Made by a program: the position numbers and the translations under genes. A stretch of 63,588 nt of DNA, filler included, from Neolecta irregularis DAH-3 (taxonomy: Eukaryota): the NCBI GenBank assembly GCA_001929475.1. It is 7 parts of 7 records of this genome, joined end to end, with 100 filler letters (N's around TTAATTAATTAA, not from the genome) between each part and the next. Parts side by side here need not be neighbours in the genome. Positions count along the whole stretch, not along the records: positions 56,459 to 61,137 come from LXFE01000219.1; 6 more parts are not named here. One strand, written 5' to 3'. Under the pieces are notes generated by a model. That model did not search any database and was not told the DNA's origin. It saw only the letters and a program-made list of their open reading frames with translations. This document shows positions 2,357 through 63,552 of this stretch, piece by piece; the stretch's first letter is position 1; each line of letters opens with the position of its first letter.

Positions 2357-5300
2357 TTATATCCTATTATACATGACCATAAACGACCGAATCAAGCGAC
2401 CCAACTCATCCATAAAGGGTCCATCCCAGCAAGAGACTTTGGGTTTACTGCAAGAGAAATCAAATCGATGATTGTTTGATTAGCGGGAATGTTTGGTTTC
2501 GCCACTTGGGAAAGAGAAACAGCCCTCCGAACAACCATATCCACATTCGTCGCCACGCAATCACGGAGCTGTGGGCTATCGGCTACCGGACGGTGCTGCT
2601 GAGTGAACCAGGTACTATAAAAATCAACTGAAGAGTTTTAAATGATGGACATACATCAATTCATCCCGGACAAAGATGCAAAGATACTGGTCAAGCTCAA
2701 ACTAGAAGTGTTGGTGAAGAATCTTTGAAAATGATCATACTTGAGGTTCAGTCAAACATTTGGCGATTGCCATCAAGGCAAACGAAAATATTCCTTCAAT
2801 TCCCACAGGTCCCATGAAATTTTGGACATTTGATGTAAATCGGAATGGAACCGCTTCCGAGAGATGAAATACCGGATTGTTGGGTGCCATAGCTACTTGT
2901 AAGGAACTATAGCTTGTCCGCATACATGGCAACAGCTCTGATGTCCAGATATTTCCGGTGGCTCTTGAGACAGAAATCTTGTGCGGAAACCGATTGCCGA
3001 TATGCATGACGTAGCACATAAAGGTGAAAGTGGCATATTGATAACAAAACTGCTTTCTAAATAGCCAGTAGTCTTCAAAATGTCCATATGTCCGCCGTAC
3101 GTACTAATCGTTAACGCCAATAATCGAGGCAAGTTACATCTGTCAACATGCTTGAAGAGACCATTGACTTTTGTATTTCTTCCAGGATCTCAATCTTCTC
3201 AAAGATGAGATCTTGAGGCTAAGAATCAGTACAAGACCCTCAGGACGAACAAACAGCTTGTTCGTTGGTGAACGCATTGACTTTCTGAGTGTAAAACTTG
3301 AGAGGATCATCTTTATGCATGCCGGTTTTGTGGCAATATTCTTCGTAAATTCCTTGAAACGAAACAAACGATAGATCATCTTGAATGATTCGAATATGGG
3401 GAGCGAGTGGTACTGCTGTTGGGAGATTGTACTGAAGGTTTCGACGACGGCTTTCTCTTTTCGATGACAAAGCGCTAGCCATATTAGAGGAAAATAACTA
3501 GAGAGCAGTTACCTATTAAGGATCCGGAAAAATTGTACTATTCGTTCCTCCCTCCTGCAATGACGTGCTGCAGGATACTGGACATGAAATGGATGTTGAC
3601 TTCCATCGTGCCCTCGAATCGTAAGTCGACGATAGCAAATGCCGTTCCCCCGAACAACTTCCAATGTAGGTAGAAACCTCAAGATTTTGATGAAGTCGTT
3701 ATTGTTATCCTTGTGCTATGACAATAAGCCCTGGAACTAGCAAACGATCTTGACCAAAAGGTATTGTCCAGGAACTTCAATGTCGTCAAATTTCTGGTAT
3801 TGGAATTCTGTCAAGTACGGACTAACTTGTTCCAGATACTGTTTGTCCTGCCGTTTATCTAAAACAAGTTCAAATCGATCGCGCCATTGACGAAGCCGTA
3901 ATATGTAGGTGTGAAGAGTAAGGTTTTGTTGTATAAAATCTCTTTCAAACGCCGACTGTACGTTTTAAATCCTTACGATCAAATAGAAATTACCTTTAGC
4001 GATTTCGGCACTACCGTTTCCGAAAAACGCACGATATTAGCTTCTGTAGCTGGCGGAAGATTTGAATCTTCAGTCAAAGTCACCGCACGGCCAACATACT
4101 AGTGGTAAGAACAGAGGCTTTAATGTCAAATACTTGAATTGCATCGTTGAGAAGAGCAACCGTCAAACGATATGCATCTTCGTCAGCTGGACACTTCAGC
4201 CGTTGTTGAATTTGATCAACCATTGTCTCCATGGATAAAGCCAATAGCGGAAATGCCGTTTTCAATATAGCCATGATCTCGTCAACATGTTCCCATGGTT
4301 GTCGGGTCTGAATTTGAACACTCTTTGAAAGGGGTGATTCTGTGCGAGCACCATTGTGCATAGCCTGTACTGCTAAATGTTAGAATTTATAGGATTATTG
4401 TGGGCCATACAATCTGAAGGGGACTGTTCGGAAGATAATTCAGCGGGATTTGGTCCATTGGTCTCGTTGCCAAGATAATTTTGATTTGATTGGACGGGGG
4501 AAGTTTCTACTTTGACTATCGGGTCACTGGTAGAACGGCCTGATCGCGCCGTTGCATTCTGCGCGGCAGCATACGCTTGCTTCTTGATTATGGTGTAATC
4601 TTCCTTTGTCGTGCGAAGTTGGAAATGCAAAGCCTGTTTATTAGCGCATCCAAAACATAGCCAATACCTGGGGATAACTTTTGGCAATTTTGATGAGAAT
4701 TTGTCTAGCATAGCGTGCTTCTTTATGGGATAGTGATGTTAGGAGTTGTGGTATGAACGTAATCCAGTACCAAACCGGCACTTCCCCTTTATAAGACTCC
4801 CATCCTTTAGCAATGTTTCCTACTTGGTCGTCGAGGCTTAGGAGCCATAATACACGATTGAGGAGTTTTCTCGACTTTTTATTCTTATAGATTCCAGCGG
4901 CTTGGAGGTAACAACTGACAGCATGACATGCCAGGGTAAGGTCCTCGGGGTTTTCTTTAAACCTACGATCATTATATCGACCCCACTCAGCCCAAGCCTT
5001 CCCAAGAGTGATATCAATTTGAATGGCCGTCGCAAAAGCTTGACTTGCTTCATCTTTCATCTTCAAAGCCGCAAGAAACATTCCTTTGAGAGTGAAAAAC
5101 TCTGCTTTCTGCTGAACACCGAAATAAACGAGATTAGTGTTACTAATCACATCAAGTCCAGTGCTTAATTCTGCAGGGTTTTGGTAGTGGCATTTGGCTT
5201 GTTCGCGGAGCTTGAGGAAAGCTTCTTGAATTTCAATGTTCGGCAGAGTGTAAATCTTGGTTAGTTGATTGATACACACTCCAGGAAGCTGATGTTTCCG

Positions 5301-8300
5301 TGCAACGTGCGCAAACCGGTTGATGATCCAAGCAGTTTCGTGATAGCCTCGATAGGCATACGAGTTTGCGTTAGAATTGGCGCTCTGAGGTAGATTGGAC
5401 ACTAATGGCATATAAGTCCTATTAATGGTTGCGAAGACCAATTGACGCCATGCCACGAGATCGCTCCAAGCCGTCATATCATCCCATGTATTGGGGAGTC
5501 GCTCCCGCCACGATTGTAAAGTACTTTTCAGCTCCTGGGATTTTGTTTCGAGATTTTGAGTCTGCGTGCTGAGAAGACCGGCATAGATCTGGGAAGCTTC
5601 TTGTAATTCAACAAATTGTTGGAAAGTTTGCAGAAGGGGGGTATGTGCTTGATTGACAAAGGCTGGCAAGTTGTTCCACCTTCGTAATGAAAGCTGCATT
5701 CCTTCCTCACAAATACGATTGAATTCTTGAGAGGAATCTCCCCTGACTTGAGCTCTTTGCAAGGCCAAAAAGGCTTCAAAGACACAGCGGCGAGGCGACG
5801 GTTGATCGCAGATGAGTTTTAAAGCAGCCTCCAACGTTTCCCTGTCGGTTGTCCAGTCTGTGATTCGCCATGCACATTCCAATAGCAGCTCGGAAAAGTT
5901 CTCATGTTTTGCAAGGTCAGTGAGGATATCCCATTGTTGAAGTTTCTGGGCACAGAGAACCCAATGATCTTCCCAAAGTTCATATTCGGATTCTGAGAAT
6001 GGGATAGCGCCGGTGCGAGCTTTGATCTGGGCATTTTCGTACATTTGCTGTGCTGCCTCCCACATTCCAATTTGCTCGTAGGATTGGGCGGTATTTGTCT
6101 CTGTAAATTTGCATCTGCGTCTCCAAAGGCCATAAAACATATCATCTTCGCTAAGCAGCGCGTATAGTTCCGCCAGGGCATCAAGGTAGTTGTCTCTTTT
6201 CCCTAGTTCATCGCTGTCTCCCAAGAACGCCGTATTTTGAAGTAGCTCCAGAGCTACATACCAGGAATCGAAAGTTTTGCCAAGGTATTTGGTTAGGTGA
6301 GATGGTAAATGAATAACAGGAAAACTGCAGGAGATCGCCTCCATCAAAGTCTTGATAATATTGGGACGCTTATCCATTTGACGTATATGGTATTCGCGGG
6401 CGAGCAGGGTGACCAAGGCCTTTGTAAGCTCGGAGCGATCTGTTTTGCCGATCGCAGCCCAGCACATAGGGAATAGATCAATCCAAAACATATGAGCATA
6501 GTTAACATCAAGATGTTGTAAACGGGCGATAGGCTCAAGTAAATCACCGGCACTGACCCGAGGAATTGTTTCGACAAAATCCCGATGATGGTCTGAAAAC
6601 CTCTCGAGCGCATCGTCGACCATCATACTGCTAGATTGTGAAGATGACTCCTCAGCTAATGACGCCAGGTTGGAGATACACAGAGATTTTAATTGTACTA
6701 GTGAATCAGTCTTCACAGAGCCAGATAAAATTTGCACGGCTTGCTTGAGCCAGTAGTGTGTTGCTAGAGACTCCCAATCTTGAAGTGCAATGACATAATT
6801 GAGACGGTTGAACACATTCCTTGACATGCTACCATCAAATATTGTCATGAACCTGTTACGGATCTGATAATCCTCGGCTCGAGTACCCATCAAGAAAGCG
6901 TTTTCCAGGCGAACGGTCAATTCTGTGCGAGCCAAAGATTCATCTTCGTAGACATGAATGATCAACTCGAGAAACTGATTAATAAGAGTATGGTCGCCTT
7001 TATGTTCTAAAGTAGGGATTTTCAAAAGAACTGCAGTCTTTTCCTTGACTGTGGGAAAGGGCTCAGACTTGTCGAGCACCCATGCTTTTATCATGTCAAA
7101 GAGCTTATGACAAACAGCCAGATCTGCCGATTTCTCCAACAACTGTACGATCACAGTAAGGAAGGTCCTTCTTTGGTCACCGAGGACGCTAATACGTCGA
7201 CGTGCGATATCAATAGTCTTCAAAGTCAGCTCACTTGCAGTAAGCTTATCCAGCTCGGAGGGACCGACCGAGGCGTCCGGGTTGATCGCTGGAACATTCG
7301 AGGAAACTTGTGAGGATGTTGAAATATGATCTTTTGCAAGTTTTTGAAAGATTTTCATCAAACCAGTCACATTTGCATCGACAATATCGGGCCGGGCCTC
7401 TACTAAAATCGACAACAGCCCGACGAGAAGGGATAGATTCGTGGATGACTGCAGCAAATCTTGGACAACTGTAACGATGAATGCCTCGAAATCCCTGACC
7501 GAATTTTCGTCGACTAGCATTTGGTCTGCAAGAGTGATTTGATAAAACCTTTTTGCGATTTTAAGAACATACTCTTGTAGAGCTGGAGCTTCAATGCGAA
7601 TAACAGGCGTCAGTAGCTTTTGTATGTCCCTCAAGTTATCCAAGAGCCAAGATTCAGTTTGATTCAAACAAATAATCTCCAAGGTTTCCATCGTGCTGGA
7701 GAAAATTGGAGCAGTGGTGTCGCTATATTCTGTCTGAATGAGGTTTCGTTCAAACATGCCTAGCTTTGTGTCAGCGACCGGCCAAGTGCGGCCTTCGAGA
7801 AGGATTCTTAACAAGAATAATGCGCGCATAGTCAACGTTTTGCGATTAGCAAAGTCGGTACTTAAACAGAAATGCACGAGGTGCGTCAATATTGAATCCC
7901 GAAGGCTGTCTGAAGCACTTGATGGTGAGGTATTTGCGTTGTCTCGATTTCGTCGCTGTTCCCAGCGAATGATCAATTCGATCAAATCTAGCGACAACGC
8001 CTTGGTTTCAGTATTTGAAGAGGTCACAAATCCTAGCTTTGGCAATGACGCAACGATATGCAGAGTATATACATCTCGAAAATCGTAAAACATGTCTGCA
8101 TGTCTCGCCATGAAATGATAGATATTCATAAGCTGCGAAACACTCTGGCCGTCTTCTTGAATTAACCGAGAAGGCCATTTTGCCCAGTGGGAAGCACGAC
8201 CATCGCCACTTGCTCCCAGCCTTTGAGGAAGTACAGCAGCAAGAATGTCTAGAGCCTGTCGCACGAGTATTTTTCCATCGGCTTGGTGAGATTTCAGCAA

Positions 8301-11300
8301 GGCTACATAAATCTGAGTGACGATTTTGACCGGTGTTTCAAAGGCTGCGATGAAATAGGCGATTAATACATAAGCCGCCTGTTTCGTCATAACATCCTCA
8401 ATCTTGATATAATTCCAAGCGAATTTAATGACGTCTTTCCGGACTTCTTTTACTAAAAAGGGCCTGTTCTTGACGATCAAAGCGGATAGCTGTAACAACT
8501 CGACACGAAGAAAATCATTGGAACATAGCTTGTCCTTTCCATAGTCCGACAGCGCGGGTTCCCAGATATTACTATGAATGAGTTCGACCATTGTTTTATC
8601 CACGATGTTGCCCGCGCTACCTTCAGTGTCCAAGTTGGACGCAATCTGGGGGTTTAGAATGTAGTGAAAAACGAAATATTTGACATCATGAGACGTCGTT
8701 TCCTTTGGAAATAATTCGATACATTTCAACAGAATTTTCGCCTTGTCGGGTTGTGATGCGGTATCTGTATATTCCGTGAACAGGACACGATAAAGGTCTG
8801 CGTAATTTGGTGCGACGGACAGAATTGATTCTGCAAGCGCAAAGAGTTTGTCAATTTCATTCGGGTCAAATTCAACCAGCTGGAAGTGGAGCTTTATGAG
8901 AACTTCAAAGGCCTGTTCGATTGCGAGATGGCGGCCAGAACCATGGTATTCGGTTTGTCCTTCGAGGCGCATCGCTTGGGTAAGATTTTGCAACAGAATG
9001 TGTAAATTGTCCTTTTGATCGCCGAGACATGCTGGATTATGCTGCAATAGACTCTTGAGAACGTGAATCCCACAAATCGTAGCGCTGGCAAGATCGGATA
9101 TACAAACGGGTCCTTCCCGCTGAATTATTTCCGAGATATTTCCTCCAACTACATCCCTTAGAGGTTCACTGATCTTATGCGAGAGGGCTTGCCACAAAAG
9201 TCTCTGGTACTTGTTATCGTCAAGTCGTGTCTTGATAAACAACCACGTTTCTTCCGAATAGCGATTTAAAAATTTGTACAATGGCAAACGAAATGGACTT
9301 GTCTGGGTTCTTCGCAAGGTTTCTTCTAGCATGAGCACTTGGTCGATCAAATCCGCTAAAAACATGTTTGCAGTTGGGGGAAGGAGATGAAAAACGTTGA
9401 TGATGGCAACGACGATTTTGATGTTTTGGTGCTCTTCGAGGGGTCTCAAGGCGGCTTGATGTAGGACATTTGACTCTGCCCACGCTGGTAAATGATCCAA
9501 CAGCTTACGTCCAATCTCTACTTTAAAATAATTTGTCAGCAATTCGAGTAACCTGGCGAGACCTTCAAGCCCTGTGGTCGATAAACGCTTATGGTCTGAC
9601 AGGTTCATCAAGATTGGACGGAGACCAGCCTGAAGGAGGTCTTTTGGCAGTTTCTGGTTATGTACAAGGACCTGGCGAAGACCACAACTGGCAACCGCGA
9701 CGATGTCTGGATGTTTGGCGTACAAGGACTTGAAGAAAACTGAAATAGTCCGGCCTTTTGTTTGATTTTGTTGGGCAGAGGAATCAGGAAGGGATATTGC
9801 CGTGGACAAAAGTTTTATGCAAGCAATTCGCAGCTCGGCAAGCGATGTCTCCGTTTTATATTTAGGCAGAGAACCCCCGTCGTTAACTAGAGCAGAATCT
9901 TCAGCGTCAGCGAGAGCTAAAACTTCATGGAGGAGGCGCATCATTTCGTCGTTGAGTTCCAGTAACGGCTCACCGAGGGAGAGACAAAAGTCAACCGCGT
10001 CGATATAACCAATCTGCATTGCAAGCGGTAATGCACGGAGCGGCTTTGTAAAGATCGAGACGAAAACACGATCTTTTACTGGAATAATAAGCTCCTTGAC
10101 GGCAGTCCCACTTGATTCTGCCAGGTACAACAGGCTTGTCTGGACTGTACTTCTGACTATTGGATTCGAGTTTGACAACTCTGCGACAAGCATTCCGATA
10201 ATCGTGCTCAATCTTGAGATATCAGTACAGTAGGTTGTAGATCGTTGAAGAATGAATATAACAAGATCTTTAGCTTGATTAATGATAGCAAGAGGAGATT
10301 CTTGAGGCATGTCTTTTAGCACGAACAAGACAGCTCTGGTAAAGTCCACATGGTGTCTGAAGAACCAGTCTTCGCCGAGTTCCAGATCTTGGAGCATCAC
10401 ACGTATACCCAAACAGCCCCCAATCTTCTGGAACCAGTTTTCCTCCGCACACGCGTGACACAATTTTCGCGCAAAAGTCTGAAACATGGGGAAGCGGCCG
10501 CAATGCGCAGGGGACCCGAGGATAAGCGATACGGTATTGAATAGATGCCGTATGGCCTGCATTGCGGAATCCGAGATGCTTCCGAAATCAGATGCGAGAC
10601 CTTGAATGATAACGTCGACTATAACGTCAAAAGACATCATTATTTCCTGGCGCTCCTCGAACAAGAATTCGTCCCGTAGCGATTGCCCCTTTAGCAAATG
10701 CTCGAAACCAATTAGTGTGAAATGCTCATAAATGTCTTTGAGGAACCGGGAGGCTTCTTGCTGGAGTTCTAGAGTCTGTTCTGCAAGGAGACATCCAAAG
10801 ATTGCATCTTTTAGTACACTTCGCTGTGCTGCTGCCATCCCAGAACTTGCATGGATGTCTGCATCTGGGATCTGAGTGGACATTCCAGAAACGGTTGGTG
10901 TATCTTCAAGTGTAGACTCGCTGGCAAAGAACAGCTGGACTTTGTGTCGCAGGGAGGCGGCAAAGTCTGGAGGGAGACTCACGCTTCGCATGAGTAGTTT
11001 TACGGCAGAAATAAGCAATCGGAGTGCCTGTTCCTTGAGTTCAAGACCGATTCTCGAGTTTTGCAGCGTTCTGACGGCGAGATCGACATATTTGGCGCAA
11101 TCAATTTTCGAAATAGTTGGAGCTCCATGCAAGCTAAACTCGATCTCGAGAGTAGCGACGGGGATCAAGTGATAGCCAAGGGCTTTTGGATGCGAGAGAA
11201 AGCGCCTGTTTCGCCCGCCAAGTTTTCCAAGGATGCGAAGACTCCCGTGGCTATGCTGAGCCGAGTGGTGAGGCAGGGGTTTTAGATGATCATAGAGGGC

Positions 11301-11396
11301 GCCCATTAGATCGTCAATTACTGGAGCGATAATTGGATCGAAAAAATCTTGATTGAGATTATCGATGCACAGTTCGAGTGTGCGTAGACCTTGAGT
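2357..11396 (-). CDS. TRA1: Tra1/TRRAP PIKK-family pseudokinase (SAGA/NuA4 subunit), central and C-terminal part
   Basis: 2221-aa HEAT/FAT ORF ([35 protein letters not shown]), then PI3K-like and FATC exons joined by 11 short GT-AG introns. Stop is at 2392 if unspliced, or 2357 if a final non-canonical intron is used. Confidence 0.95.
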
Positions 11397-11496
11397 NNNN
11401 NNNNNNNNNNNNNNNNNNNNNNNNNNNNNNNNNNNNNNNNTTAATTAATTAANNNNNNNNNNNNNNNNNNNNNNNNNNNNNNNNNNNNNNNNNNNN
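11397..11496. other. Artificial scaffold linker (N44-TTAATTAATTAA-N44); also at 33634-33733, 48428-48527, 56359-56458, 61138-61237 and 62274-62373
   Basis: Six identical 100-nt spacers carrying stop codons in all six frames. Confidence 0.97.
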
Positions 11497-11497
11497 A

Positions 11498-11562
11498 GGC
11501 CCCACCCGCCAGAGAGGCTCTGGCGGGCGCAGAGATCAGATTTTTCCGGTAGGCGGCCAGCA
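11498..11562. repeat. GC-rich CCCGCC(G/A)GAG transposon-subterminal repeat family, copy 1
   Basis: Reverse complement aligns with 33398-33465. Related motifs at 12415-12460, 12750-12822 and 14120-14190. Confidence 0.7.
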
Positions 11563-11705
11563 GACTAATCCTCCCACAGTGTTGTGGAAGGACCATAGAC
11601 TTAATCCAGTCCATTAAAAGTCCATAGACTGGACTATGGAAAAAGCCCGGCCCATGGTCCATTGATAATATCTCTTGGGATAACGGAGATAATTTTCGGT
11701 AGATA

Positions 11706-11854
11706 TATTAAGAAAATATTCAATGTCTCATTAAAAGTCTTAAACAGTCAAGTCTATCAAGTCCAAACAAGCAAGTCTACATTTTAGACTTGCTTACTTG
11801 CTTATAAACATGTAAGCAAATTCTACTTGAAAGTTTTGCTTATTAGCAAGTCTG
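11706..11854 (-). mobile_element. Dispersed AAGT/GACTT-rich non-autonomous DNA transposon end (terminus CAGACT)
   Basis: Closely matches the reverse complement of 48242-48427 (with indels); more diverged match to 42151-42238. Confidence 0.7.
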
Positions 11855-12268
11855 TGTACATTGAATATCAGGTTAAAGCCTAGCCAGCTAATCTGGCTGG
11901 GCGCTACTTATGTACACATGGGCTGCTGCCTTCATATGCCTGCCCGCCTTTCCATTGATCTCCTGGGTGGCGATGCCTATGGCTGGCCCGCCTGGGATGA
12001 TCGGTGACCCTTGCTGCTTCTTGTGCTTGACCTGATACTTTGGCGGTGGCGGTGGCAAGCTGGTGGGGATTGCGACGTCGGGGTAAAGTCGTGTCCCCAC
12101 AGGCAGCTACAAGCCTACAAGACTACTTATAGATTTACGAGAATGAGCCACATCATTGTAGAAAATCAAGAAATGTACAATAATAGAAAACCTATCAGAT
12201 AACCGCTATGAATACTACGTGCATCATTTTCGCATGACAAACGTAACTACGTTTATAATCAATGTTGT

Positions 12269-12412
12269 CTATTTGCTCCTTCCTCTGAAGGACCCTTATC
12301 CGTTCCGCACATCTCCTCATTGAGCTCATTAGCTCTTCTTGTGGAGCATTCGATCGATCGCGCTGCGAGGATATTGCTCCTCTGTTTGTCCATGACGAGG
12401 TTAACCATTCTC
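12269..12412 (-). repeat. Fragment of the degenerate coding repeat also at 63412-63552
   Basis: Aligns by eye to the reverse complement of 63412-63552 (VNLVMDKQRSNILAARSIECSTRRANELNEEM vs VNLVLDTESGNILTARSIKYSARRANELNEEM). Confidence 0.75.
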
Positions 12413-12414
12413 AG

Positions 12415-12822
12415 GTGGGCAGGCGGCGGGTCAAATGTTCTCCGGCGGGCTTGCGGGTCGTTGTTTTAACAATTTATATAGGTGCAATCCTGAATTCACT
12501 AAATAATCAAAGTTGCAAATATAAAATGATTTTTATCGGGCCATTTCTTTAGTTGGTGTAAGTATGTGCAACACACTCACGAAGTTGACGACGAATCATC
12601 GGAATCACCGTGTCACGTGATCCGCGAGAAATCGTGCGAGCAGAACCAAGAGCAAAAGGCAATCAATCCACAATTAAACAACCAACCAACGGATTCAAAA
12701 TCACTCAATAGAGAGCACTCTACAGATGGGTGGTTTAGATCTCTTGGGTAAAGCGGGCGGTTTAGAAATCTGTCCGTCCAACCGCCCTCTCCTCTCCGGC
12801 GGGCGGGCGGTTGGACGCACTG
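12415..12822 (-). mobile_element. hAT-like MITE remnant with terminus CAGTGCGTCCAACCGCCCG
   Basis: The end at 12822 resembles the TIR of the element at 44633 (CAGTGTGGCCAACCACCCG). Internal 13-bp inverted repeat at 12775-12818. Left boundary uncertain. Confidence 0.55.
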
Positions 12823-13118
12823 GTTATTGCGATAACTTGCATGCTCTGAAAGGGGTTTACCTACCAAATAACTAATTTATGTAGATCTAATGTGTATAAT
12901 GTGGCTCTATCTGTTTTTGGGCCAGTTCATTGAAAATATTCAAAATATATAGTTTTCGAAAAGATTATTTAAGATACAGCGCAAGGATCGAGAGTCATAG
13001 TGATTGGCTTACTATCACAAATATAGGACAATGAACCAAGGTATGGTAATATTTTAATATGACTTGCAAAAAATAACAAAAATACTTTGCATGCACGGAA
13101 CTACGGTCTGCGTACGTC

Positions 13119-13477
13119 TTAGTTGCATTTCCCACTATAACAGTGACCACATTCCTCAGAGCCCTTTCCACTGCGAACGTTGACTCCATTTGTACCGTCC
13201 CTGTTCTGACTGCAGCACTTACCCCCATTTTTCTCACTAGATTGATCAGTCGAGAGGGATTGAATTAGGGTCACCAATTATGGAAAGAATTTTGCTTTCG
13301 AAGAAACTTTCCACTGCAATCACATTCTCGCTTTTCAAGTGCATTAAGAACTTCAAATGCGGGATTTGCATTTGCCTCAGGTTCAGCTTCTCTTGCTACA
13401 ATATTTGCAAGTTCATCTGGAATGGCGATGGCTACGAGTGCGAATGCAAGAATCAAGGAAGCAACAGAGAACTTCAT
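13119..13477 (-). CDS. Small secreted cysteine-rich peptide precursor, copy A
   Basis: Signal peptide, EAEPEANANP spacer, KR site, 38-nt intron 13237-13274. Mature peptide ECDCSGKFLRKQNSFHNCEKNGGKCCSQNRDGTNGVNVRSGKGSEECGHCYSGKCN (8 Cys). TATA (TATAAAG) about 45 bp upstream. Confidence 0.85.
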
Positions 13478-42238: not shown

Positions 42239-42923
42239 CCTCTACCAAATATTGTCTGCATTGTCCCAGGATACATTATCATATTGAAATGTCAATTCCA
42301 ATCATTAATATGGATTCCAGAATATCTCAGGATCTTACCAAAGCAAATTTTTCAATTTTTGAAGACCAGACCAGTGTTGGCAACAATATAAACGGAACGG
42401 TATTGGACCCTAACCCTAACCCTATCACCCTAAACCCGATTTCCAAACCGTTTCAGATACAATTTGGATTTCATTACTATCCTCGAGATTTATTGGAAAT
42501 CCTCAATGTATTTTGTGAATTCTTTCTTGTTATAACAGGAATTTACTGTAGAAAATACAATTATAAAGAATTGTTTACTTATTCTTCATTACCCACCTTC
42601 GCCCAGTTTGAATATTCAAATTGTTGAAAATGGGTTCAAAGTCGATTGTAGACCATCACTTTGGGTTCGCAATAACGATGGACAACTCATAGAAAACTCA
42701 GGACGGTCTTTTTGAGCTTGGGCCATAGCTGACGCCAGCTCGCTGAAATCTCAAGTCATGGACGAAAACTAAGATTGCATGGTCTGGAGCTTAGTCCTAC
42801 AGGATGCCGAAGGGTCAAATTCATATTTTTAGAATGACGCACATCACATTTTAATTATAGACCTCTACTGTTTCAGTTTTCTCGACGAACTGAACCATTA
42901 AATAAGCAAAATGCTCAAAAGAT

Positions 42924-48813: not shown

Positions 48814-50596
48814 TTAGACAAACAGCTTCCCGCCCGCGCTATGCAGCCGCCGCACCGGTCGCACCCCCCACATCGCATCCTCCTCCGTCTCATCCTCCAA
48901 AACCTTTTCTCGGATCCCGCCAACCATAGACACAGGCCGGTATCGTCCAGGCAGTTTCGACCGGTCAGTCGCAAACGAGCGGATGCTCATCGGCCGGCCA
49001 CTTGGAATCTGGCCCAGGAGTGAGTGTCCAGAGAGAGATGCAGGGGGAGGCGCCTCGAGCGTTTGCTGCTTAATCCTGTTTAGCAAGTAAATCTGCTGCG
49101 CAACCATCTGCTGCAGCATCAAATTTTGTTGAGCGTTGTCCTGGTCACTGTTGAGCACCGACTCCGGGACAAGACTACTCTTGCGACCAGCAGATTGAAC
49201 AAGATTATACCGCGTCTCCCGCTTCATTCGATCCTTTAATCCTTCAATCTCATCATGCATCCGAATACGAGGTGTCTCCATCCGGCCGATCGACAAATCA
49301 TGTGGCCCTGTCTCCACTTGGTCTTTCCCCCCTATTTCGTCGATCGACGCCAACAAATTCCCCGCAGAGGAACTCCTCGCGCTCGATCGACTAGTGATAC
49401 ATTGTCCAAAGTACGGATCGCGGGGAAGAGGTACATTGCGCAAATTAGGGTGACTGGCAAAACTCTTCAATTCGCCTATATTCCGTTGTCGGCCTTCGCG
49501 AGGGAATTGGTGTGCTTTCAGCACTTGAAGGGGAATGCTCTCTTGTTGGTCATCTTTCAATTCACACCAACTGTCTTCTTCCCTAAATACAGGCGGTCGT
49601 GGCGTTGTCAGTCCCGTGACCCGTTGGATCTGCTGCCGGTAAACGTCTAATCGAGCTGCATGTCTGGCGCGCTGTCGAGAAATTTGGCGACGGTACTCAT
49701 CCTCTTCGTCAGAGGATGAGAACGAGTCGCTGTCTGAATTATCGAGTTGGGCTTGCATGGTTTCTGTTTGCAGTTCTAATGTGGAGACTACTCTTTTAGA
49801 GCCATGGCGGAGGGGACCTCCTCCACGGAGATTAGTTTGTTTGGTGTCCGCGGCTGAAATATCGGGGGTATCTATTGTATCGGGGTCGGTATCTGGGAGC
49901 AATGACGTTTCTGCGCGGTCCGGAATATCCTGTCGAATATCATCCAGAATATCCTGTTGAATATCATCCGGAATATCCTGTCGAAAATCTTCCAGAGTAT
50001 CTTGTCGAATGTAATCTCGCGTGTCCTGGCCCATTCTGGTCATAGACAACAGTTTGAATCCCTGGTCCAAGCGGAGGGGAGAGGGGTCGTCTGGTGATTA
50101 GTATTTGAAGCAAGGCAGAGCGAGGCGCATCCCTGTCTCTCTTGGCTCAGATGACAGGGTGACACTCCGGGCGGGCAAATATACCTTTTAGATCGTCCTC
50201 TTCAAATCCGCTGTCTCTGTTCTTTGCAAAGGCAGGGGGGAGGGCCTTCAGGAGGGTTGAGGAGCGGACTGAGGAGCGCGGCAGGGGCTTTTTTGTGGGG
50301 GAGAGCTGTGAAAGACGGGCTCTGTAGAGATCTGGTTCTGATTTCTGGGGACTTGTTCTGGAGAGACGATGCTGTGGTATATACGGACTGGCTGGATCGA
50401 TCTGTGACTTGACGAGATTGCCGTCTGATTTCTGGGGACTGACACTGCGGGAAAAATCGAGACGCGGCGGCTCCCACTGGGGCGTGCTGTAGCCCCCGTC
50501 ATAGCGGGCAGACAACAGTTTGAAGGAGGAATCGGGCGAGGGGGCCGAGTCGATGGAGAGCTGGCGGGAGCGGCGGTGGAGAAAGGCCAGCGGCAT
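48814..50596 (-). CDS. Low-complexity hypothetical protein
   Basis: Two long ORFs joinable by a phase-1 intron at about 50091-50184; Ser/Pro/Arg-rich; no recognised domain. Confidence 0.65.
49921..50029 (-). repeat. 24-nt coding minisatellite (QDIPDDIR-like 8-aa units)
   Basis: QDTRDYIR QDTLEDFR QDIPDDIQ QDILDDIR QDIPD. Confidence 0.85.
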
Positions 50597-50742: not shown

Positions 50743-51914
50743 ATGGACATTGCCCCGCTGCACGTCCCCGTGGCCCGCAGGCTGCAGACGCTGGTAAGCG
50801 CCGCGCTAGCCGCTCCCGGCTAACCCCTGCTCGGCCGTGGTGTGGCACGCCGTCGCGCTCGCCTTCTTCGCAAGCCTCTTCTTCGTCTGCTGCGCCAATC
50901 CCCTCCTCTGGCCCGTACCCTAACCCTAACCCTAACGACCCTCGCTAACCCCAGGCCCTCCTCCTCTACCTCGTCCGTCCCTCCTCGATTCTCTGCTCAC
51001 CCCAGATCTACTGCGCCAGGGACGATGCCTTTGAGACTGGCCGTCTCCGCAGAATTGCATGGCTGCGCGCACTCCCGCTGTGGTCCTGCTACGCCCACTA
51101 CTTTCCTCTCACCCTCCTCAAGTCAGCCCCCCTTGATCCAAATCATATTTATATACTCGGCTACCACCCGCACGGCATCATCTCCCTCGCTGCCTTTGGC
51201 AATTTCGCCACAGAGGCCACCGGCTTCAGCTTGCTCTTTCCCGGCATCACAAACACTCTCCTCACCCTCGCCTCAAACTTTCGCATCCCGTTCTACAGAG
51301 ACTATATCCAGTTCCTCGGCATTGCTAGCGTCTCCCGCTCCTCCTGCGAAGCTCTTCTCCAGCGCGGACCTGGAAACGCAATCACCATCGTCGTGGGCGG
51401 TGCTCAGGAATCTCTCCTTTCCAAACCAGGCACTCTCAATCTCGTCCTGCGCAAGCGCCGCGGTTTCATAAAACTCGCTATCCGCACTGGCGCCTCCCTC
51501 GTCCCTGTTTTGAGCTTTGGCGAAAATGGTAATCTTTCAGCTTCTCCAAATCTCACCCAAGAACTCTACACACAGGCAGACAATTCCCCAAACTCTTGGG
51601 TCTACTGCCTCCAAACATCGATGAAAAAACTCTGCGGCTTCACTGTCCCCCTTTTTCACGCCCGCGGGGTATTCAACTACGACTACGGATTAATGGTACC
51701 TTTTATTCAAACATCATTAACCATGCAGCCCTGGAGACACCCTGTCACCACTGTTGTTGGCAGACCCATCCCCGTCCAGAAGGCTGATCGGCCAACAGAA
51801 GATATGGTCAACCAGGTCCAACAACTCTATATCGCTGAACTCGTCCGTATCTGGGAGGATGGCAAGGATAAGTACGCTCCTGGTTATAAAACAGACTTGC
51901 GCATCGTCGAGTAA
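50743..51914 (+). CDS. DGA1: Diacylglycerol O-acyltransferase (DGAT2 family)
   Basis: APLHVPVARRLQTL|AVVWH, YFP, GYHPHG, VVGGAQESL, RRGFIKLA, VPVLSFGEN. Five introns (the first ends in CG) and an 18-nt microexon at 50955-50972. Confidence 0.93.
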
Positions 51915-56266: not shown

Positions 56267-56358
56267 GGGTTCCGGGAACCCCCACAGCCACCGCGGACGG
56301 ATAACCACCGCCACCGGCAAACGAACCAAGGACATCCTCAAAGCGCGATCGACCTTTC
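56267..56358 (+). repeat. Copy of the repeat at 63190-63281 (degenerate transposon coding sequence), cut by gap
   Basis: GACGGATAACCACCGCCACCGGCAAACGAACCAA is identical in both copies. Confidence 0.85.
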
Positions 56359-57973
56359 NNNNNNNNNNNNNNNNNNNNNNNNNNNNNNNNNNNNNNNNNN
56401 NNTTAATTAATTAANNNNNNNNNNNNNNNNNNNNNNNNNNNNNNNNNNNNNNNNNNNNGGCGGGTCCAGTTCAGGGGCAGGGGCGAGCCGTTGTAGTCGG
56501 TCTTGGAGGCGCGGACGGAGAGGCAAACGGGATGCGGCAAGGCAGCTAGCTGCAGGCTGGTGGACGAGGCAGGAGGGACTCGCGGGACAGGTGAGGCGGG
56601 AGGGGAGAGGAGACAAAGTCGCGGGGGCTGGAGGTGGAGGAGAGAGAATTGACCCCTGACACTGAGTTCTCATACCACATCATGAAAGGCACGTTGGAAC
56701 CCAAAGGAATGGTATTTCTTCGACATTGGGCAGCTGGTCGCTTAGAACTGGCGGCTGGAGGTGCTTGTGCAGAGGATACAAAGAGGATGTGTGGCGAGGA
56801 CAGCAGGTGAGTGCGGTGTCAAAGAGCAGAGTGCAGTGGAAGGTAATAGGTGCGGCGTAATGCAGGCTCAGACTCGTCCTCCACCTCTCACTCGTCTCCA
56901 TCTACCTGTCCCTGCTCGATGCCCCGCCCCAGCAGCAGTACTTTGTCCCGCTCACAGAGTCCTCATCCTTGGGAGCCCTGCCTCTGAAGGCTATCTCGTC
57001 TGCCGCCCGCCCGATGTCGCCTTCAGGCTCTCCCTGGATCTCATCCGCTGTCCCAGCACTCCCTTGCCTCTTCCACTGCCACACAAAGTCCCGCGCTTCC
57101 TGTCTCGACTTGGACCCTTTGCACCAGAACCATGCTGTGTCCAGATGCTCGTCTTTGCCATAGTTGCATTGTGGGCACTCCGTCCTCATGTTTAGGATTT
57201 GCTTCTCTCCGGCCCTGGCTTGCTCGCATCCTCCTTGTATACCTCTTTGGCTCAAAGTGGGAGATTCGCCACTGCTCCTTCCTCCAGCTTCGGCTACTAC
57301 ATCGCAGACATCATTGTCATCCCAATCTGCGAAAGCGCTACCCAGACCCTTGCAGCTTGCTTTACACACCTCAACCTGGTCTCCATCAAACTCTCCTACA
57401 CAGATGTCATTGATGTGTGTATTGCTAAGGATGCAAATATGCAGAATTGGGGATATAATAAGATGTATGTATCCTTTTACCAATAAGGCTAATATATTAG
57501 AGGGTTTGGCGGCATGGATTCTTTATGAGTGAAGGGAATTAACATCCCTGATGCGATCTCTGAACAGTGCAACTGTAATAGTGAATTTTCAATATGTCAT
57601 TAATGTCATAGGCATGGTGTGCTATACTCAAATGGATCTTGTCCCAGAAATTCAGAGCGAGCAGATGGGGATATGGTTAGTTGTGGTGGGCAAGGTGGCG
57701 GAGGAGTGCAGCCAGGCCAGGGAATGCAGCGACGCAGGTGAGGCATTAGGGGGCAGCCGCCTGGTGCTGACAGAGATGCCCAATAAATTCAACTGTCATA
57801 ATAGAAAATGGGAATATGGTCTTATGTTGGTCAAGTTTGTCTTTTTGGTTTAATGTTTGGAATATCAAACTACTTTACATTTCCCCACTTGTTTAAGCTC
57901 CCTCTTTTCTCGTCATACTTTGCTACCTGGCAGACCATCCTATTCTTGCTGCAATCTTGTCGAAGCAGTTGCA

Positions 57974-60900
57974 ATGGAAACCGTTGAACCTACTGTACCA
58001 TTGAACACATGGACACAAATATTTACTTTTCTTCCCGAATTCGGAGTCCTTATCTGTCTTGAGCACCACTGTGCCATTCGCCTGTCGAGTCTAGATCGTC
58101 ATATCAGCGCTGAACATAGTATCTTCAGGAAGGAAAAGAAGCTCCTTCTCAAAGAGCTATCCCATCTTGAGATCAGGAATCCTATTGATGTAGTTCACCC
58201 GGGAAGAATTACAAGTGTTATTAAGGAATTGAATATTGTTAGTAAGAATGCATTTCAATGCTTGGTAGAAGAATGTAACTACTGTTGTTTAGGATTGAAA
58301 AAGATGCAATCCCACTGCCGATCAGAACACCAGTGGAAGCATGAGCTGAATCCAAATCCGATATGGGAAGCAGCGCATTTGCAAACGTTTTTTACACACA
58401 AAAGCTATATCAAATATTTTCGTGTTGCTATCACTGAGAGCAGAGTCATCGATAGTGTATCAATAAATGACAGAACCCTTCAAGCCTTTAGAGAGTCGCA
58501 AACGCTTCTTGTTAAATGCCATACATCAATCCAACCGATAGAACATAAGTCTGAGAATACGCCATGGATGACAAAGACTGGCTATCGCGAATATCTACAA
58601 GGTCTTCCCTGTGTTGATATTATCAAGTCCTATCAACTCCCAAAAGGAAAAAATAATGAAACCTGTTTGGAAGGTGTTTGCAAGAGCCTGGATCGAATAC
58701 TCAATAAGGCGCTCAAGTCAGCAACAAATGAAAGAGGTAATGGGCATCTTACATTAGCAAATGCGCGAATTCTTAATACCTTCCAATCTGGGACACTAAG
58801 TCAAAAACCGTTTAAAGCATTACAAAACCAAGAAATGGCAAAATCCTATTTTAGTGTATGGAAAAAGCTGATTTACTATATTTACCGGATACACTATAAT
58901 AATGCCTTTCCAGAGATCACCATATTCAAACTCACAACTCAACAATTAAGTCATATTAATACATCATTTTCCCAACTGAATAATGAAGAAAGCTTGGATA
59001 ATTCCTGTCTATCAATGAGTTACAGTCTTATTGAACATCCTCTCGAGTTTGATTCATTCGAATCTCCGATTATCAGTTTTTCTGCGGCACTCTGTCTCAA
59101 TTCAACTGGTAGCAGCTTTCTTGAACCACATCATTTTACACCATTTCTTTCGAGATTAATATACTGCATACAACTTATTACTCTTGAATATAATCTTGTT
59201 AATTATGAAATAAACAAGGAAGATAATCAGTCATTTCAAAATTATTTTAAAATCGCATGCGACAAATGGATTCTGAATACAACAGTAGGACCTATGTCAG
59301 AACTTTTAAGTACAAGATTATATGGAATGGAAATTGGTCGGAACACTATTGCACCAATGACGACTTATTGGGACGAAGCTAGGGAAGTAGTGACATACCG
59401 ATCTACAGAGCTAGCGATATCAGACCTCCGGCGGTTTATGAAAGAACAATTATTTGTGGCAAAACAAATATTATATGAAAAACTACTATTTTTCTATAAT
59501 CCTGAATTGAAGTTCAATTTTTCAGGTATTTTGCTATTTATTATAACAAAGATTAATATTCTAGTTATTAAAGATGACTTTGGACAAAAAAACGTCGGGG
59601 AATCATTTTTAACCAACAAATGCAATGGATTTGAAGGATCTGGCGAATGGTTATTCCAGGCTATCCTCAATGATCAAAAACTACTTAATACAATGGCAGA
59701 TTGTATTACTGATGGTAACCTTGTATGGAAGCTACATATTATCCTGCAATACGAACATCAAATCCAGAGCTTTCTCAATCACTTGCTTATTCTTATTCAC
59801 ATGGGATCTGGTTAACCAGGCAGGGGTGCAGAAATCCTTGGTACAAGATATTGTAATACACATGAAAGAAGAAATTTGTTTATTCACGATGGCTTAGTTA
59901 TGTTTGCAATGCCATATCACAAATCGCAAGCAGTAACAAATACATCAAGGTATGTTAATCTAAAACTATAATATATTTATACTAATATTATTGTAGATTT
60001 GTTTGTTGCTTTTTACCTGAGGAGGTTGGGATTTTGCTCGTTACATATCAAAGTCTAATCCTACCATTTCGAAACTATTTGAATAATGAATCAATTGGGA
60101 AAGACTGCTCCTCTGCATTTATTTGGACTACTCAATCTGGCATTTGGGAAACCGATTATATGACAACATTATTAAAGAAACAGACAGAAGCATCTAAACT
60201 TCAATCTCTAACAGTTTCCACATGGCGCCATATTGCCTCAGCTATTCTGAAAGAAAAGTTTATGGGCCTGAATCTCCAATTGGATTACGAAAATGACGAT
60301 GATTTCAATAAAGAAACAAATTCATTTGCATTTCTGCAGGCTTCGCATACAGCTAGGATGAGCAATATTCATTATTCCAATACCCTTGAGTTTGATGGGC
60401 AATTAACAGCTGGTGCACTTCTGGAATACCGAAAAGTTAGCAAAGCTTGGCATACTTTTCTGCATTTTGGAACCAATACAATATTGAACTCAAATAAGCG
60501 GATACAAGACATTTTAGAAGAAAGAGAAAACCCACCACTAAAGAAGGTTTTATTAGAACCTCAGTGGGTAACTCGCCAAAAATTAGGTCGTCGAACTATT
60601 TGGTCAGCTGAGGAAGTCGATATCGCGCTTTGTAAGCTATACGGAAAAGATTCCAACTTCAAGTCATATGGACAGAAGCAAGCATTAATGGAAATTGTAT
60701 CTGGAACAAGCCAGATTATCGTGATTCTTCCTACTGCTGGTGGAAAAAGCTTGTTATTTATACTTCCATCAGTTTTGCACGGTTCTGGAACTACAATTCT
60801 TATATTACCACTAGTCGCACTTCGCCAGGATATGGAAAGACGATTGAAAGAACTCGAGATTCCCTATGCATTTTGGTCACATGAGCAACAATACACTTCA

Positions 60901-61137
60901 TCACTTATTATCGTAACTATTGAACAAGCCTCGACAGATTCTTTCAAATCATATTTATTAAAGCTCAGTAGTCAAAATCAACTCGACAGGATCGTTATGG
61001 ATGAATGCCACTTAATCTTCACTGCAAGTGATTACAGACCAAGTATAGGGCTTTTAAAGGAGCTACGGATACTGAAATGCCAATTCCTATTTCTATCTGC
61101 AACATTTCCACCATCAATGGAAGATGATTTTAATCGG
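57974..61137 (+). mobile_element. DUF3505-like zinc finger / tyrosine-recombinase-like / RecQ helicase fusion (telomere-linked-helicase-like); one nonsense codon, 3' end in gap
   Basis: VLICLEHHCAI..RHISAEH, CLVEECNY..HCRSEH, TPWMTKTGY; HMGSG*PGRGAE, YHKS, TWRHIASA, QASHT..IHY; Walker A PTAGGKS, ILPLVAL, DECH, LSAT. Introns at 59526-59564 and 59950-59996. Confidence 0.75.
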
Positions 61138-63189: not shown

Positions 63190-63552
63190 GGGGATTCCCG
63201 GAACTCCCACAGCCAGAGACGGATAACCACCGCCACCGGCAAACGAACCAATGACGTCCTCAAGGCGCAATCGGCCTCTCCATCCGCAAGTAGAGCTAGG
63301 AAGCTCAATAGGGATGTTAGCCGCTTCCTTATCAATGGGAGTGGCCATCCCATTGACCGGCAATCGAACGCGATACCCGCAAGAGGAGCGGGAGCGCGGC
63401 AGCTCAAAGGAGAAGTCAATCTCGTCCTGGACACCGAGAGCGGCAATATCCTCACGGCCCGATCGATCAAATACTCCGCAAGAAGAGCGAATGAGCTCAA
63501 TGAGGAGATGTACGGAACGGACGAGGCTCCGTAGAGGAAGGAGCCAATAGGC
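63190..63552 (+). mobile_element. Degenerate multicopy coding element (possibly Ty1/copia-derived)
   Basis: Homologous pieces at 12269-12412 and 56267-56358 on other scaffolds. LVLDTESGNILTARSIK weakly recalls the copia post-integrase SH3 motif. Confidence 0.5.

Follow-up and report, generated by a model that had tools for sequence, protein, structure and literature searches.

Does a fungal gene in which two zinc fingers, a set of tyrosine-recombinase active-site residues and a RecQ helicase follow one another belong to a mobile element and, if so, to one of a kind already described? The question is raised by positions 57974 to 61137 of a 63,588-nt window from Neolecta irregularis DAH-3 (assembly GCA_001929475.1), the window being the whole stretch of DNA that was analysed, a chain of separate contigs joined via artificial N44-TTAATTAATTAA-N44 linkers. 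An initial interpretation made from the sequence alone (the sequence-only reading) had described the locus as a candidate for a distinct, perhaps unnamed class of mobile element encoding a polyprotein. We find that the gene almost certainly belongs to the telomere-linked helicase (TLH) gene family, and that the domain in front of the helicase in these proteins very probably has a tyrosine-recombinase-type fold, as judged from a structural model of a homologue. The reading that we favour, with some reserve, takes two things together: that a TLH protein combines in one chain OrsD zinc fingers, a helical region, a domain of recombinase/topoisomerase IB type and a RecQ helicase, and that this chain would spread the DNA unit that encodes it. 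The copy in the window is an ordinary decayed member of the family, and its value lies in this family-level reading. The parts of the gene on which the argument depends are the following.

58019..58333, +: OrsD double zinc finger (PF12013), Pfam E 6.4e-10, residues 16-120
58451..59362, +: mostly helical middle region, approximately residues 160-463, confidently modelled
59396..60492, +: predicted tyrosine-recombinase / topoisomerase-IB-like catalytic domain, broken by a stop codon and an intron
59813..59815, +: in-frame TAA (HMGSG-stop-PGRGAE), at the Gln of GQPAR in the family consensus
59822..59824, +: Arg I (PGRGAE), R in 211/216 homologues
59921..59923, +: Lys (YHKS), K in 222/223, in a beta-hairpin turn
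59950..59996, +: spliceosomal intron of 47 nt (GTATGT...TACTAAT...TAG), splitting the recombinase-like domain
60226..60228, +: Arg II (STWRH), R in 241/243
60346..60348, +: His (QASH), H in 233/246
60373..60375, +: candidate nucleophile Tyr (IHY), Y in 243/245, with H-x8-Y spacing as in XerD
60673..61137, +: RecQ N-terminal RecA lobe (PF00270, DEAD), E 4.2e-16, ending at the contig end
60730-50, +: RecQ motif I (PTAGGKS)
60997-61011, +: RecQ motif II (MDECH)
61093-104, +: RecQ motif III (LSAT)

The sequence-only reading had placed its five candidate residues between two Cys/His fingers and RecQ motifs I-III. All five lie, exact to the base, where it had put them, and the flanking parts were borne out by the Pfam matches to PF12013 and PF00270 and by the motif coordinates. 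A single reading frame had also been claimed, and this held in part. The residues do follow one another in frame order, while the TAA, the 47-nt intron and the contig end at 61137 had been overlooked: from the ATG at 57974 the frame is open to 59812, meets the TAA at 59813-15, continues in the same frame to 59949 and, after the intron, runs on to 61137. The splice was confirmed by the database gene product P0112, which is 100% identical and reads TSR/FVCC across the junction, and tblastn with homologues jumps over 59950-59996. The TAA is also present in an independent contig of sequencing run X1, with 0 differences across 57275-60697. Since it replaces a consensus Gln, it is a nonsense change, and the window copy is therefore probably a decayed pseudogene, as far as its sequence tells. 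Because the contig ends within the helicase, the RecQ part beyond motif III, motifs IV-VI included, is lost. What is encoded is one multidomain protein, and the term polyprotein does not apply. A 39-nt in-frame stretch of GT...TAG form (GILLFIITKINIL) at 59527-59565 falls in a gap of the alignment to the homologue P0003, and could be a second, very short intron.

The TLH family and its recombinase-like domain

The window protein is collinear from fingers to helicase with full-length P0003 (1685 aa; E 4e-40 and 2e-47). With the middle part of P0003 as the query, 109 proteins were found at E<=1e-3, most of them of 1400-1800 residues with PF12013 and RecQ/helicase domains; they come from Dothideomycetes, Eurotiomycetes, lichen fungi and Sordariomycetes, and one bears the name tlh1. 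When the last exon of the window gene was searched exhaustively by HMMER, 221 proteins were returned at E<=1e-30, and pieces of the window protein matched the family hidden Markov model (HMM) of the region upstream of the helicase at E 2.5e-44 (positions 2-180) and 3.7e-40 (185-370). TLH proteins are described as having two C2H2 motifs, a ‘TLH domain’ and RecQ motifs (bioRxiv 10.1101/2024.02.27.582403 and 10.1101/2022.03.07.483234, in their accessible text), and the window gene has two N-terminal C2H2-type motifs, the TLH domain region as a conserved domain 5′ of the helicase, and the RecQ-type core with motifs I-III. This architecture already carries the name TLH in the literature, so the proposal of a distinct, unnamed class is unsupported. 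Judged by its position, the recombinase-like domain is most likely the ‘TLH domain’ of the literature (~250 residues).

In other respects too the likeness to TLH genes is close, these being multi-copy, often truncated or mutated, telomere-adjacent genes. The GC content of the Zymoseptoria TLH family is given as very low, 34.7%, in the part of PMC4522978 available to us, and that of the window gene is 36.5%. Aligned with P0003, finger 1 (58055-58117) has His in place of its second Cys, a Cys-to-His variant also reported for the M. anisopliae TLH in the accessible text of bioRxiv 10.1101/2024.02.27.582403; finger 2 (58259-58330) is of the form C-x4-C-x12-H-x4-H. Among proteins of solved structure, the helicase part is best matched by RecQ5 (E 4.7e-15), RecQ1, E. 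coli RecQ, BLM and WRN. The window copy differs from the described family in being less than ~40% identical to any protein found, and in lying on a contig of only 4.7 kb, on which a telomere linkage is not visible. Between the OrsD and DEAD matches of the window protein, Pfam recognised nothing.

Two side observations concern membership of the family. Members assigned to Mycobacterium kansasii, Quercus suber and Tanacetum cinerariifolium most likely reflect fungal contamination of those assemblies. In some 19 members of 930-1115 residues, the recombinase-like domain is present along with OrsD fingers and helical region, but Pfam finds no helicase; they stop 40-120 residues past the Tyr, several are from Fusarium or Colletotrichum, and one is on a 3.9-Mb contig. 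These members may form a branch of their own that lacks the helicase, or their gene models may be truncated.

To follow the candidate active site through the family, an HMM built from 121 motif-selected homologues was aligned to all 246 proteins matched, and the counts given with each residue above have as denominators the homologues covering that position. Each of R, K, R, H and Y is 95-100% conserved across proteins that are 20-40% identical overall, as the sequence-only reading would have it. The Glu next to Arg I is kept in 213/216 homologues, and in the model of a homologue the Lys sits between strands E238-245 and E255-260. The window protein has 20 of the 21 columns of at least 90% conservation; the sole exception is a Cys (TGC, 60007-60009) at the position of a beta-3 Arg that is present in 225/227 homologues.

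Because the domain in the window is interrupted by the stop codon and the intron, a homologue was modelled in its place. The AlphaFold2 (AF2) model of the first 430 residues of P0117, made from 68 aligned sequences, has a mean predicted local distance difference test score (pLDDT) of 86.7 and a predicted template modelling score (pTM) of 0.85. When this model was compared with 48,161 chains by VIA-align, the top 11 rows (Z 11.2-8.0) were all Xer/Cre/integrase proteins or type IB topoisomerases: XerA 4a8e_A at Z 11.2 (root-mean-square deviation 3.4, 161 residues aligned), XerD 5dcf_A at 10.1, XerH at 10.0, XerA at 9.9, XerD at 9.5, Cre at 8.9, the Brujita integrase at 8.8, IntI at 8.6, a staphylococcal integrase at 8.4, bacterial topoisomerase IB at 8.1 and Leishmania topoisomerase I at 8.0. 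The rows beneath the superfamily were unrelated helical hairpins at Z 7.7 or less. Foldseek agreed, if weakly: all 21 rows listed to rank 31 were tyrosine recombinases (Cre, XerA, XerH, integrases), the best at E 7.6e-3 and probability 0.89, and TelK was at rank 45. Language-model neighbours included the Phage_integrase, NDC10_II and ResT-TelK (protelomerase) clusters at 0.83-0.85, values that lie below the tool's trust line and serve as a lead only. The order of strands and helices in residues 464-611 of the window protein is that of residues 75-208 in the homologue model, where the recombinase-like domain starts. The sequence-only reading had expected a recombinase fold to be predicted, and this model bears it out.

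The window protein itself, modelled over residues 1-613 (pLDDT 87.1), gave unrelated helical proteins by Foldseek (best E 0.08) and generic helical hairpins by VIA-align (best Z 7.3, covering residues 470-613 only), lists by which the helical region 160-460 was barely probed.

Compared with Xer, Cre and lambda-Int, the TLH domain shares the catalytic-domain fold (Z 11.2-8.6) and the disposition of an Arg at a helix start, a Lys in a beta-hairpin turn, a second Arg in a helix further on and, close to the end, His-x8-Tyr. It differs from them in having no detectable sequence-profile similarity and no HxxR His, in its large insertions, and in being fused to a RecQ helicase and zinc fingers within a protein of 1500-1800 residues. 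With type IB topoisomerases and the resolvases TelK and ResT it likewise shares the superfamily fold, at scores lower than those of the Xer enzymes. The Cryptons and the Starship captains (DUF3435) are, like the putative elements considered here, fungal tyrosine-recombinase elements without terminal inverted repeats. Unlike the captains, the window pieces and the 19 helicase-less members have no Pfam match to DUF3435; unlike the Cryptons, to which they are likened by description only, the TLH loci examined are terminal or subterminal and not typical interstitial insertions. To our knowledge, neither Cryptons nor Starships are telomere-bound or encode a fused RecQ helicase.

Units at chromosome ends

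Relatives of the window gene were collected by a scan of metagenome contigs, which yielded 79 related loci. In 11 of these, an array of (TTAGGG)n with at least 3 repeats terminates the locus, always downstream, on the coding strand and 0.3-5 kb past the end of the protein match. The relatives are telomere-adjacent and are transcribed towards the telomeres.

Eight of the loci (L011, L013, L014, L017, L018, L019, L021 and L040) form a subfamily with 80-98% identity, in which homology begins at one nucleotide, CTAYCCACAAT, ~390-400 nt before the ATG; in the four loci that have sequence upstream of this shared 5′ end (31-454 nt), that sequence is unrelated. By eye, the first 130 nt of the unit in these eight loci and in L007 and L008 contain ACAATTGT close to the terminus, together with a palindrome of 17 nt whose right half recurs in two direct repeats. 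The sequence of the 5′ site differs between sublineages (CAATCACAT, CGATCACAT, CGATATCAT, CAATCCCAT) and the arrangement is constant, so that the palindrome and repeats look like co-evolving, putative protein-binding sites. In a blind scan, 10 of 44 loci, belonging to several subfamilies, had the palindrome-plus-repeat arrangement upstream of the ATG, versus 0 of 880 shuffles. As a separate observation, the 5′-terminal 44 nt of the unit (L019:1-90) or 68 nt in three copies (L007:1-205) are duplicated in tandem.

Whole units also occur in tandem. In L011 (5630-10766), a TLH unit is followed head to tail by one of another subfamily, with 1.4 kb of purine-rich, degenerate telomere repeats in between. 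The distal unit of L011 has a palindrome of its own (AATCCACC...GGTGGATT) and GTGGATTCAG repeats, and breaks off within the recombinase-like domain, ~225 nt short of the telomere array. At some other loci a second OrsD gene stands in tandem, or the genes that lie downstream are ordinary metabolic ones. By description, though not by a comparison of sequences, such units resemble the Saccharomyces Y′ elements (Y′-Help1), in which a helicase-encoding unit likewise lies between subtelomere and telomere, in tandem and with telomere-like tracts between copies; we know of no recombinase domain in Y′. Y′ elements are amplified in telomerase-negative survivors (in part PMC4522978, in its accessible text).

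Copies of the window gene were sought in run X1, which holds contigs only and is possibly from the same sample as the window. There, a single contig of depth 183, which carries the stop codon and matches the window without a difference, accounts for the gene body, and the 5′ flank has a summed contig depth of 2756-13146 versus 183 for the gene body, spread over many variant contigs. A related contig spans 60668-61137 with 19 differences in 470 nt and extends ~1.6 kb; at depth 1508 versus 183 it is approximately eightfold deeper, so that further helicase copies exist there. Since this run and a second one are both stored as contigs, these depths are no measure of copy number.

The sequence-only reading had seen the helicase as the replication module of a self-integrating element and not as a host RecQ. 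The telomere link, the multiple copies, the sharp 5′ bound and the tandems fit a self-propagating terminal element, and fit a subtelomeric host gene family equally. Mobility of the TLH units is plausible.

A self-spreading unit or a host enzyme

On the reading that we favour, the Tyr would attack DNA to form a 3′-phosphotyrosyl link, like Xer/Cre enzymes and type IB topoisomerases. The 5′ site cluster would be read by the zinc fingers and/or the recombinase-like domain, cleavage and rejoining would occur at the 5′ site or in telomere-like tracts, and the RecQ motor would unwind or branch-migrate the joint. The unit would thereby copy or move itself between chromosome ends, like a Y′-type terminal element. 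We think it fairly probable that the domain is catalytically active in intact TLH copies. Taken on its own, the proposal that the recombinase activity serves the spread of the unit is a serious possibility that stays short of probable. The further step, that TLH units make up an unrecognised class of chromosome-end eukaryotic DNA element spread by a self-encoded tyrosine recombinase fused to RecQ, is put forward tentatively and is rather unlikely; the unit would then be joined to another telomere, or set free, either in circular form or as a linear copy with resolved ends. Were it true, subtelomeric helicase families from fungi to choanoflagellates, perhaps including Y′, would descend from one kind of recombinase-driven terminal element.

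A number of observations weigh against the favoured reading, in regard to both the domain and the unit. The first His of HxxR is not conserved: position -3 of Arg II is S in 76 homologues, A in 54, Q in 47, R in 30 and other residues in the rest, and the window has Ser. The active site is a candidate one, assigned by residue order and conservation, and the homologue modelled is ~33% identical to the window protein and stands in for the window's own interrupted domain. Foldseek gave no match at E 1e-3. Pfam found no Phage_integrase (PF00589) or DUF3435 in the window pieces at E<=1, and an integrase family in 0 of the 19 helicase-less members even at E<=10. The family profile found no recombinase among Protein Data Bank sequences, its best match, eIF3L at E 0.07, being meaningless, and among the HMMER matches none was more than ~40% identical to the window protein except its own product P0112. 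By hhalign, the match to 13 E. coli K-12 recombinases was non-significant (E 0.32, probability 0.19); the target was made from the 13 integrase-family loci of that strain, as a search with XerD had given only near-identical XerD, useless for a profile. In regard to the unit, there are no terminal inverted repeats in L011, L018 or L040, no target duplications, empty sites or circle junctions were found for the TLH loci, and the 3′ limits vary from 5187 to 6351. The shared 5′ end is drawn from metagenome contigs, in which copies from one genome are not distinguishable from orthologues of related species. In M. oryzae, a discrete proximal boundary is interpreted by the authors as that of a subtelomere domain (PMC1635262, in its accessible text). 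In the window, the 4.7-kb contig has no telomere repeat, the gene body corresponds to the single X1 contig of depth 183, and upstream of the gene there is no site cluster, only weak 8-13-nt recurrences (ATGTCATTGATGT / ATGTCATTAATGT at 57404 and 57594).

The main rival is a host role. In this explanation, which we consider unlikely, TLH is a telomere-rescue enzyme and not mobile: the recombinase/topoisomerase-IB-like domain would nick, swivel or resolve while RecQ unwinds, so that one chain would act as a RecQ-topoisomerase analogue on telomeric recombination intermediates when telomerase fails, and location at chromosome ends would let telomere loss switch the genes on. Type IB topoisomerases and telomere resolvases likewise lack the first His and have the same R-K-R-H-Y set, and both type IB topoisomerases and TelK are among the structural matches; the Xer-type recombinases, however, outscore the topoisomerases (Z 11.2-9.5 versus 8.1-8.0), and the TLH chromosome ends are ordinary TTAGGG arrays, unlike those of hairpin-telomere resolvases. 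The constant orientation towards the telomere (11/11) fits position-dependent regulation, whereas the exact 5′ end, the lineage-specific covarying sites and the tandem units would be unnecessary for a plain host gene. In the part of the M. oryzae study available to us (PMC1635262), S. pombe TLH expression only in telomere crisis is cited and a role in telomere maintenance is proposed. Borrelia ResT offers a precedent, since it combines recombinase-like resolvase chemistry with RecQ-like, ATP-dependent 3′-5′ unwinding in one chain, at telomeres (PMC5388405, accessible text); in TLH, by contrast, the helicase is a separate canonical RecQ domain. A host enzyme sits less well with the finding that some Botrytis strains carry TLH while others lack it (bioRxiv 10.1101/2022.03.07.483234, as far as its accessible text goes).

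It is improbable that the fold is real but non-catalytic, a DNA-binding or scaffold module for the helicase in the manner of the kinetochore protein Ndc10, in which domain II is folded in this way. Ndc10 has lost its catalytic residues, and of the language-model neighbours the NDC10_II cluster is one of the closest (0.85). The missing HxxR His, and the fact that no sequence profile recognises the domain, would also suit such a module. Retention of each of the five residues at 95-100% in proteins that share only 20-40% identity is, however, hard to explain without chemistry. We think it fairly probable that the domain is catalytically active in intact TLH copies.

That the order of the motifs is a coincidence, with no recombinase-like domain present, is highly improbable: Pfam, HMMER and hhalign gave nothing significant, but the residues are invariant across the family, the model is confident, the 11 best of 48,161 chains all belong to one superfamily, and the Foldseek list agrees. 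The hhalign alignment, non-significant as it is, sets R, R, H and Y against XerD R148, R247, H270 and Y279, and RFLP against RLVP. We take both the fold and the set of active-site residues to be real, and the relationship to lie too far back in time for sequence methods to detect.

The gene family is known, and records of TLH genes at the chromosome ends of fungi go back over 20 years. The accessible text of published TLH work gives the function of the protein as undetermined and calls the central domain merely “TLH-specific” (bioRxiv 10.1101/2024.02.27.582403 and 10.1101/2022.03.07.483234). No link between TLH and tyrosine recombinases was found in the searchable literature, a scope from which subscription papers fall outside; the recombinase reading of the TLH domain was thus not found in print, and it may have been noticed elsewhere. 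If the domain is active, it becomes testable why TLH helicases sit at telomeres and how subtelomeric units hop between chromosome ends. An active domain would also give the tyrosine-recombinase elements of eukaryotes a further branch, telomere-bound and fused to a helicase, and would bear on telomerase-independent end maintenance.

The window copy and its surroundings

The contig and the gene copy within it are laid out as follows.

56459..61137, no strand assigned: contig with the gene (LXFE01000219.1), 4679 nt, with a linker on either side (from the table of N runs and the sequence)
56459..57082, +: G/purine-rich 5′ flank, GC ~58%, highly repeated in run X1
57974..61137, +: TLH gene copy, with ATG at 57974 and its 3′ end missing at the contig end

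The TAA at the Gln position and the Cys in place of the beta-3 Arg would fit C-to-T decay, the ancestral codons being those suggested by the homologues. Repeat-induced point mutation (RIP) was considered as a source of the low GC content and rejected: TpA/ApT is 0.73 and (CpA+TpG)/(ApC+GpT) is 1.46, on the non-RIP side of the usual cut-offs, in gene and flank alike. The open reading frames of the 5′ flank (56459-57082) matched no Pfam family. Just upstream of the gene, a stretch of 114 nt (57541-57654) has a counterpart, 17 differences apart, within a 12-kb contig of run X1, and reads of both runs connect 57437 to 57541 or to 57619, a small repeat or indel polymorphism.

Elsewhere in the window, interstitial tracts of three CCCTAA units are present at 50912-50935 and 42408-42425, inside other GC-rich contigs and not at contig ends. 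A 63-nt stretch occurs at 56296-56358 and, with 90% identity, at 63218-63280 on a different contig, the first copy lying at the end of its contig. A run of a 12-nt-periodic repeat (TCCGGAATATCC / TGTCGAATATCA) occupies 49919-50038 of another contig.

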